This document shows positions 52,481 through 52,531 of a stretch of DNA of 64,000 nt, in pieces; position 1 is the stretch's first letter; each line of letters starts with the position of its first letter. The position numbers and the translations under genes were made by a program. Under the pieces are notes generated by a model. That model had not been told where the DNA came from, ran no database searches, and was given only the letters and a program-made list of their open reading frames with translations. Source of the stretch: Escherichia coli (GTDB lineage Bacteria > Pseudomonadota > Gammaproteobacteria > Enterobacterales > Enterobacteriaceae); assembly GCF_002854065.1 (NCBI RefSeq), contig NZ_CP024147.1, one strand, 5' to 3'.

Positions 52481-52531
52481 GCCCCTCACCCCGGCCCTCG
52501 CCCCTCTGGGGAGAGGGTTAGGGTGAGGGGG
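52481..52531. repeat. nested imperfect palindrome between convergent yjdP and phnP
   Basis: gcccctcaccccggccctcgcccctctggggagagggttagggtgagggggc: outer arms cccctcacc/ggtgagggg, inner arms ccctct/agaggg. Confidence 0.55.

Follow-up and report, generated by a model that had tools for sequence, protein, structure and literature searches.

BoxC is, to our knowledge, among the few classical repeat families of E. coli that are still without an assigned function after thirty years, and the literature on it, under the names BoxC and PIT, reportedly includes the work of Bergler (1992) and Hoyne (2000, 2002). Its members are dispersed, non-coding and structure-prone repeats built from blocks of 9-10 nt, CCCTCNCCC and GGGNGAGGG. 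Holder et al. (PMC4666352) relate that BoxC was the first name (1990s), that Hoyne and Maher introduced 'PIT element', and that TMECO is the authors' own term. The TMECO consensus reads 5'-CCCTCNCCC-N3-6-GGGNGAGGG-N3-GGGNGAGGG-3', and the motif was reported from '>260 genomes' (Holder et al. 2015, PMC4666352). One E. coli copy, TMECO #22, is sited between yjdP and phnP in Table S2 of that paper and belongs to the type A 'mm' class, with one mismatched triplet. The same authors describe raised variability in the surroundings of TMECO sites and hairpin-preserving deletions at palindromic pairs, the 'palindrome effect' (PMC4666352). Kaplan et al. 2016 (PMC5100583) entered the yjdP-phnP locus in their Table 1 as HPGQ #51, class HPG1, with a midpoint at 4314309, and proposed HPG1 and HPG2 as motifs that switch between G-quadruplex, hairpin and duplex.

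We analysed a 64-kb stretch of E. coli DNA (the window) that contains this intergenic region. The element falls within 52481-52531 (GCCCCTCACCCCGGCCCTCGCCCCTCTGGGGAGAGGGTTAGGGTGAGGGGG) and lies between the stop codons of two convergent genes, yjdP (52129-52458, plus strand; stop at 52458) and phnP (52554-53312, minus strand; stop at 52554), the latter being the last gene of the phn operon. Both coding sequences were taken from the open reading frame list and from the RefSeq annotation of the identical XJ34 locus, and they bear out the convergent placement proposed in an earlier note on this DNA. The RefSeq annotation gives no feature at the element. Using a repeat finder, we observed an inverted repeat whose 23-nt arms, 52482-52504 (CCCCTCACCCCGGCCCTCGCCCC) and 52508-52530 (GGGGAGAGGGTTAGGGTGAGGGG), are 83% complementary and flank a loop of 3 nt; together they form an imperfect palindrome of 49 nt (52482-52530). 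The earlier note had described a nested, GC-rich palindrome of about 50 bp with inner arms CCCTCT/AGAGGG, about 20 bp past the yjdP stop. Our measurements agree with this description: the inner arms are found at 52502-52507 and 52512-52517, and the palindrome is separated by 23 nt from the yjdP stop and by another 23 nt from the phnP stop. In the minimum-energy fold the inner register is CCCC-TCT-GGGG, slightly off the CCCTCT/AGAGGG arms. RNA folding, which the same note had proposed as a check, yielded a very stable hairpin at -50.2 kcal/mol (z -4.4) for the plus strand and -48.6 kcal/mol (z -4.2) for the minus strand, and on either strand 0 of 200 shuffled sequences folded equally well. Folded as DNA, the palindrome reached -22.0 and -20.5 kcal/mol. 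Read directly, each of its strands also contains four G-runs, which is the G-quadruplex pattern. The GGGNGAGGG block occurs four times in the window, every time inside the element, against a chance expectation of 1.17; for the longer BoxC motif the chance expectation is 0.00.

Judged by its sequence, the element is very probably the yjdP-phnP copy of BoxC (= PIT = TMECO = HPG1/HPG2), already catalogued at the same locus, because the 36-mer at 52495-52530 is identical to TMECO #22 in Table 1 of Holder et al. (CCCTCGCCCCTCTGGGGAGAGGGTTAGGGTGAGGGG; MG1655 4314285-4314320, PMC4666352). Aligned to K-12 4314180-4314362, the window locus is orthologous to the catalogued copy. It is an already-known repeat, not a new kind of element, and very probably not a terminator. 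The type A 'mm' BoxC/TMECO core on the plus strand (52495-52530) reads CCCTCGCCCC-TCT-GGGGAGAGGG-TTA-GGGTGAGGGG and is followed by the conserved right flank of the BoxC unit, GCCAGCGCGCAC (52531-52542, plus strand), to which the flanks CATCAGCGCGCAC and AACAGGCC.GCAC of other K-12 copies are comparable. To its left lies the GG linker (52493-52494, plus strand), preceded by block 1, or C' (CCCCTCACCCC, 52482-52492, plus strand), the outer left arm of the palindrome. Read on the minus strand, block 1 becomes GGGGTGAGGGG, the third block of a type-B motif, and the GG linker together with the last C of block 1 is the complement of CCG, the second loop of type B. The consensus is matched on both strands, at 52495-52529 (plus) and at 52483-52517 (minus). 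The overlapping type-B match (52482-52517, minus strand) reads CCCTCTCCCC-AGA-GGGGCGAGGG-CCG-GGGTGAGGGG, with the identical sequence in record L002, and shares the central hairpin with the plus-strand core. The whole imperfect palindrome (52482-52530, without strand) comprises four blocks that form one long hairpin or cruciform.

Comparing the window copy with TMECO #22 of K-12, we find the same 36-nt core, the same genes yjdP and phnP, the same orientation, the same right flank and the same consensus match. The window allele differs in missing 51 bp that precede the core in K-12, GAGCACAATCGGT (the left flank of type A) among them, and in having a fourth block joined via a CCG-type loop; as a consequence, overlapping matches to the motif are present on both strands. 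The five BoxC 'pairs' of K-12 differ from this arrangement, as each is made of two separate units 16-60 nt apart. With HPGQ #51 the window allele shares the locus and the four-G-run sequence GGGGAGAGGGTTAGGGTGAGGGG; in contrast to HPGQ #51, its minus strand also bears a four-G-run tract, GGGGCGAGGGCCGGGGTGAGGGG. By direct reading, both strands are thus G4-capable and their C-rich complements overlap.

The REP/BIME repeats resemble BoxC in several respects. Both are short, GC-rich, imperfect palindromes that are intergenic and usually downstream of genes, both are transcribed into 3' UTRs, and both are multi-copy and occur singly or in inverted pairs. However, their sequences are unrelated, REPs number several hundred against about 20 copies of BoxC, REPs are specific to lineages while different phyla have the BoxC core in common, and no RAYT-like enzyme is associated with BoxC. 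We rejected a REP/BIME identity, as the earlier note had also done: the REP consensus GCCGGATGCGGCGTGAACGCCTTATCCGGCCTAC is matched with 1-3 mismatches at three other sites of the window (1138-1171, 31645-31678 and 56176-56209) and nowhere in the element. Membership of an Rfam family was likewise rejected. In a scan of 52000-53000 at permissive E-values no Rfam family reached its gathering score; the best match, mir-1258, scored 24.4 bits against a gathering score of 74, and all the sub-threshold matches were to generic hairpins such as miRNA precursors.

Left of yjdP the window holds an island (48955-52060 and upstream; L002:1-7591) with genes for a hybrid sensor kinase, an N-acetyltransferase, a sugar ABC transporter, a lyxose/mannose isomerase and an aldolase. 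Its match is OI167, the mannose-utilisation island lmvR-lmuKAIZYX-lmvK of EHEC (Yang et al.). Similarity to K-12 restarts only within yjdP, at about 52163, which leaves the 5' end of that gene (its signal-peptide region) in the variable segment. The earlier note had put the element just inside the conserved side of the island's right junction, which is roughly right, the restart being about 320 bp further left.

We checked the abundance of the repeat by a genome-wide search, which the earlier note had advised with the remark that a lack of other copies would speak against its proposal. With a 76-nt query, 97,897 places were found in 5,425 of 5,426 complete E. coli genomes (median 19 related places per genome), nearly all of them chromosomal; the sequence is therefore a dispersed repeat. 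For the anatomy of the family in K-12 we aligned all 18 loci that hold the 23 published copies, each of which was recovered at its published coordinates. The BoxC unit exceeds the 36-nt core, with conserved flanks reaching 15-20 nt on each side. Type A units have G.GCAC-N5-CGGT on the left and AACAG..GCAC, AACAGGCC.GCAC or CAGCGCGCAC on the right, and type B units have TTTTCT on the left and CATCAGCGCGCAC on the right. Measured against this pattern, the window copy retains the type-A right flank GCCAGCGCGCAC and has block 1 in place of the left flank. The neighbouring genes are convergent at 7, tandem at 9 and divergent at 2 of the 18 loci, and at 16 of the 18 the repeat is downstream of at least one gene 3' end. 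BoxC #19 lies within the pstSCAB-phoU operon, between pstA and pstB, and BoxC #21 between the co-directional genes yihS and yihR. BoxC #3 (NC_000913.3 282031-282136) belongs to a cryptic prophage, CP4-6, where it lies 118 bp upstream of yagA, the gene of an integrase-core-domain protein, and is preceded by an additional inverted GGGGAGAGGGG block. The repeat has been published as having no association with mobile elements, from which #3 departs mildly. At adk-hemH (NC_000913.3 497820-498054), about 54% of genomes have a 157-bp cassette that contains BoxC #6 and the adk terminator, and the remaining genomes have an unrelated 53-bp segment with its own hairpin (compared in L126, L146 and L147).

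The window carries a distinct allele of the yjdP-phnP copy. In K-12, 51 extra bases stand between the left block CCCCTCACCCC and the core, whereas in the window the left block is followed by GG and then directly by the core. We call this the compact allele, in which GG is the fusion junction and the four blocks C'-C-G-G' form one long hairpin. Using a 45-nt query across the fusion junction, we detected the compact junction in 97 of 5,426 genomes (about 2%), once in each. A count at 80% coverage or more gave 3,196 genomes, a figure that is not allele-specific, split alignments having been joined. The compact form was present at 0 of the 17 other K-12 loci and in 0 of 147 cores from outside E. 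coli. By DNA folding it is far more stable than the K-12 unit (-22 versus -13.7 kcal/mol). We also sampled the length of the region with a 401-bp query, taking 60 records at even steps through a ranking of 5,431. These 60 records fall into 8 length classes (452, 449, 401, 382, 348, 340, 333 and 327 bp), and the site has at least eight length alleles in public genomes. The 452-bp class is the K-12 type and makes up about 55% of the sampled rows, the 401-bp class is that of the window, and the 382-bp class was seen in O157:H7. Aligning representatives, we find a complete BoxC pair in JX21CE8, in the order A(-) then B(+). K-12 and the window have the opposite arrangement, B(-) then A(+), with different internal deletions. 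The O157:H7 allele has lost the left block, HCP17 retains only the last block, EE72d retains only the first, and Rb-3 and SF-088 have zero BoxC blocks at this locus. The BoxC-less alleles resemble deletion remnants. The strain of the 348-bp allele, HCP17S3_I4, has yjdP annotated as a pseudogene that is interrupted by an internal stop, and the deletion comes within 5 nt of the yjdP stop codon.

The pattern of alleles fits deletion, and possibly inversion, between repeated blocks. The compact allele joins the outer block and the CCG loop of a type-B unit on the minus strand directly to a type-A unit on the plus strand, giving the four-block palindrome. Most likely it arose when the CCCTCNCCCC blocks of an inverted BoxC pair, which are direct repeats, slipped or recombined; some 50-75 bp would be lost in this way, the AT-rich spacer and the left flank of type A among them. 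In the simplest series the pair would first be inverted between its outer blocks, which are inverted copies of each other, and deletions between directly repeated blocks would follow, the compact allele being the one that would have lost the segment between the two C blocks. We infer the direction of change, deletion as against insertion, only tentatively and from a handful of alleles. The spacers of the K-12-type and JX21CE8-type pairs differ in length and in sequence; a simple inversion is therefore an incomplete account, and the inversion step is only suggested. The instability at yjdP-phnP is the same behaviour as the 'palindrome effect' described at TMECO sites (Holder et al., PMC4666352), and these alleles give a concrete natural example of a 'hairpin-preserving deletion', a modest addition and not a discovery. 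What is new here is descriptive only, namely the rare compact palindromic allele and the series of deletion, possibly inversion, alleles. The locus could serve as a test site for the rates of BoxC-driven deletion and inversion.

Scanning representative genomes with the published motif, we found at least 120 loci, and among the matches listed are members of the Verrucomicrobiales, a Scytonema cyanobacterium, Pseudomonas, Polaromonas, Hyphomicrobiales, Methylomagnum, Deltaproteobacteria and a Methanomicrobiaceae MAG. This spread is consistent with the published genome count (Holder et al., PMC4666352). Across organisms the core is nearly constant, and the flanks are genome-specific and sometimes part of longer local repeats. 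The nominally free 'N' positions are constrained in the 147 cores: the N of block 2 is T in 80 and G in 66, that of block 3 is A in 146 and that of block 4 is T in 137. A G.A mismatch is kept in about 45% of the copies. A hairpin covariation test on the 147 cores found no covariation, the variable positions being T-A or G.A only, because the 'N' positions are fixed; comparative support for a selected RNA stem is consequently unobtainable. With these bases, a plain hairpin is a poorer fit than a purine-motif triplex or sequence-specific recognition.

For the mode of action we favour, with moderate confidence, a passive and structural one. In DNA, the blocks would promote hairpin or slipped-strand intermediates, making the intergenic region unusually deletion-prone and possibly inversion-prone. 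In RNA, the repeat is probably no more than a very stable stem-loop in the 3' untranslated part of each convergent mRNA; by analogy with REP stem-loops it could slow 3'-to-5' decay, its 21-bp stem may be a substrate of RNase III, and it would not terminate transcription by itself. Of the two proposals in the earlier note, a different intergenic repeat family and a bidirectional terminator, the first stands, as BoxC, and the second is unsupported, in view of the missing T-run and the absence of any call at the element in a promoter and terminator scan. We regard an intrinsic terminator, whose hairpin would halt RNA polymerase arriving from both yjdP and phnP, as highly improbable. The hairpin is very stable on both strands and lies between convergent genes at 23 nt from each stop codon, the 7 convergent K-12 loci among 18 exceed an assumed background of about 15% (binomial p ~0.01), and Kaplan et al. 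judged a terminator role plausible (PMC5100583). A stable GC-rich stem-loop just past stop codons is indeed what the element shares with intrinsic terminators, but the U-tract of these terminators is absent 3' of the stem, where the sequence is GCCAGCGCG on the plus strand and CAATGCCTG on the minus strand; no T-run directly follows the stem in GCCAGCGCGCAC (plus) or CAATGCCTGCTC (minus). Moreover, Hoyne and Maher 2002, as cited by Holder et al. (PMC4666352), found PIT elements to be without promoter or terminator activity and without effect on RNA polymerase. Term-seq data of K-12 (Adams et al. 2021, PMC7815308) show read-through at other copies. The 3' end of the adk mRNA, at 497939, follows a canonical hairpin and T-run some 60 nt past BoxC #6, and that of the ilvC mRNA, at 3959531 (plus strand), follows a separate hairpin beyond BoxC #20. 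BoxC is thus transcribed into 3' UTRs there, and other elements terminate. The position of #19 inside an operon and of #21 between co-directional genes also argues against termination. The transcript 3' ends that the earlier note had looked to are not listed at K-12 yjdP-phnP, the tables holding none near 43143xx (PMC7815308), which is a weak point as yjdP and phnP are possibly silent in that dataset. At ilvC-ppiC (K-12 3959458-3959531), the convergent ppiC mRNA ends at 3959499 (minus strand; PMC7815308), and the TTTTCT left flank of the type-B copy #20 is its U-tract; a BoxC flank can hence be co-opted by a neighbouring bidirectional terminator. The label that suits the annotation of the window is BoxC repeat, and not terminator or new repeat family.

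A purely passive, selfish repeat would leave unexplained why the core varies so little between phyla, why the 'N' positions are fixed and why about 45% of copies keep the G.A mismatch. A rival reading takes BoxC as a non-B DNA switch (an intrastrand triplex, or G-quadruplex versus hairpin versus duplex) that would pause replication or transcription and so have a regulatory or mutagenic role. The blocks fit a purine-motif triplex, with A in block 3 and T in block 4 of nearly all 147 cores, and both strands of the compact allele have four G-runs on direct reading. For the identical type A 'mm' sequence class, CD and NMR demonstrated triplex formation in vitro (Holder et al., PMC4666352), and K+ versus Mg2+ shifts the balance between G4 and hairpin (Kaplan et al., PMC5100583). 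The raised local variability at TMECO sites (PMC4666352) and the eight length alleles at yjdP-phnP would also agree with a mutagenic structure, yet the link between instability and non-B structure is correlative. In a duplex context the DNA remained B-form, in vivo DMS footprinting revealed no protection and hence did not support a stable triplex, and no in vivo effects on polymerases or conjugation were reported (Holder et al., PMC4666352); in the compact allele, moreover, triplex and G4 alike face strong competition from the long Watson-Crick hairpin. Taking these points together, we consider the switch possible but doubtful. Unlikely to a greater degree is a non-autonomous mobile element, MITE-like or mobilised in the REP manner by a dedicated enzyme, with the alleles as insertions and excisions. 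The repeat is dispersed and multi-copy, its presence varies among strains, its unit flanks are conserved for 15-20 nt per side, the same core is embedded in longer genome-specific repeats in distant phyla, and the motif occurs in frame inside the coding DNA of three methylase ORFs of other phyla. Nevertheless, comparing filled with empty alleles at two loci, yjdP-phnP and adk-hemH, we saw no terminal inverted repeats, no target-site duplications and no clean border, and a MITE was rejected on this comparison; the presence/absence difference at adk-hemH is a replacement of a 157-bp by a 53-bp segment, and the BoxC-less yjdP-phnP alleles look like remnants of deletion. We also searched for a cognate gene near 120 BoxC loci of diverse genomes, comparing ORFs of 80 aa or more from the surrounding 2 kb by all-against-all blastp and Pfam. 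The search gave no transposase-like or RAYT-like candidate, and the recurrent neighbours at these loci were generic families only, such as ABC transporters and two-component systems. Phage records are almost free of BoxC (3 of 50,697), and few plasmid records have it (194 of 72,556), mostly rhizobial and Azospirillum chromids. Rarity on phages and plasmids, the lack of a recurrent neighbour and the lack of clean borders together leave the simple MITE model unsupported.

Beside the passive, structural mode that we favour, BoxC might be the footprint of a sequence-specific process acting across phyla, for example a machinery that mobilises or recognises it, or a structure-specific pathway of repair or recombination, which we hold to be quite improbable. 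Four observations would agree with this reading: E. coli, Verrucomicrobia, cyanobacteria and an archaeal MAG have nearly the same core, the 'N' positions are fixed, the G.A mismatch is conserved in a large share of copies, and the motif occurs in frame within coding DNA in other phyla. If such a process existed, the compact palindrome would be a natural product of block-to-block recombination, and the yjdP-phnP allelic series would offer a tractable system for catching the process in action.

The coding occurrences are in three homologous DNA-methylase ORFs (Pfam N6_N4_Mtase), which hold BoxC-like motifs in their stop-to-stop frame: L019:9886-11778 (plus strand), L053:3162-5264 (minus strand) and L004:8508-11393 (minus strand). 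They originate from a Contendobacter MAG, a Methylomagnum MAG and a Pseudomonadota MAG. The encoded peptides include PSPxGRGxGGEG and HPGPLPAGEGRTL, at several non-homologous positions of the proteins. In this they resemble the Rickettsia palindromic elements, in which a repeat is inserted in frame into coding DNA.
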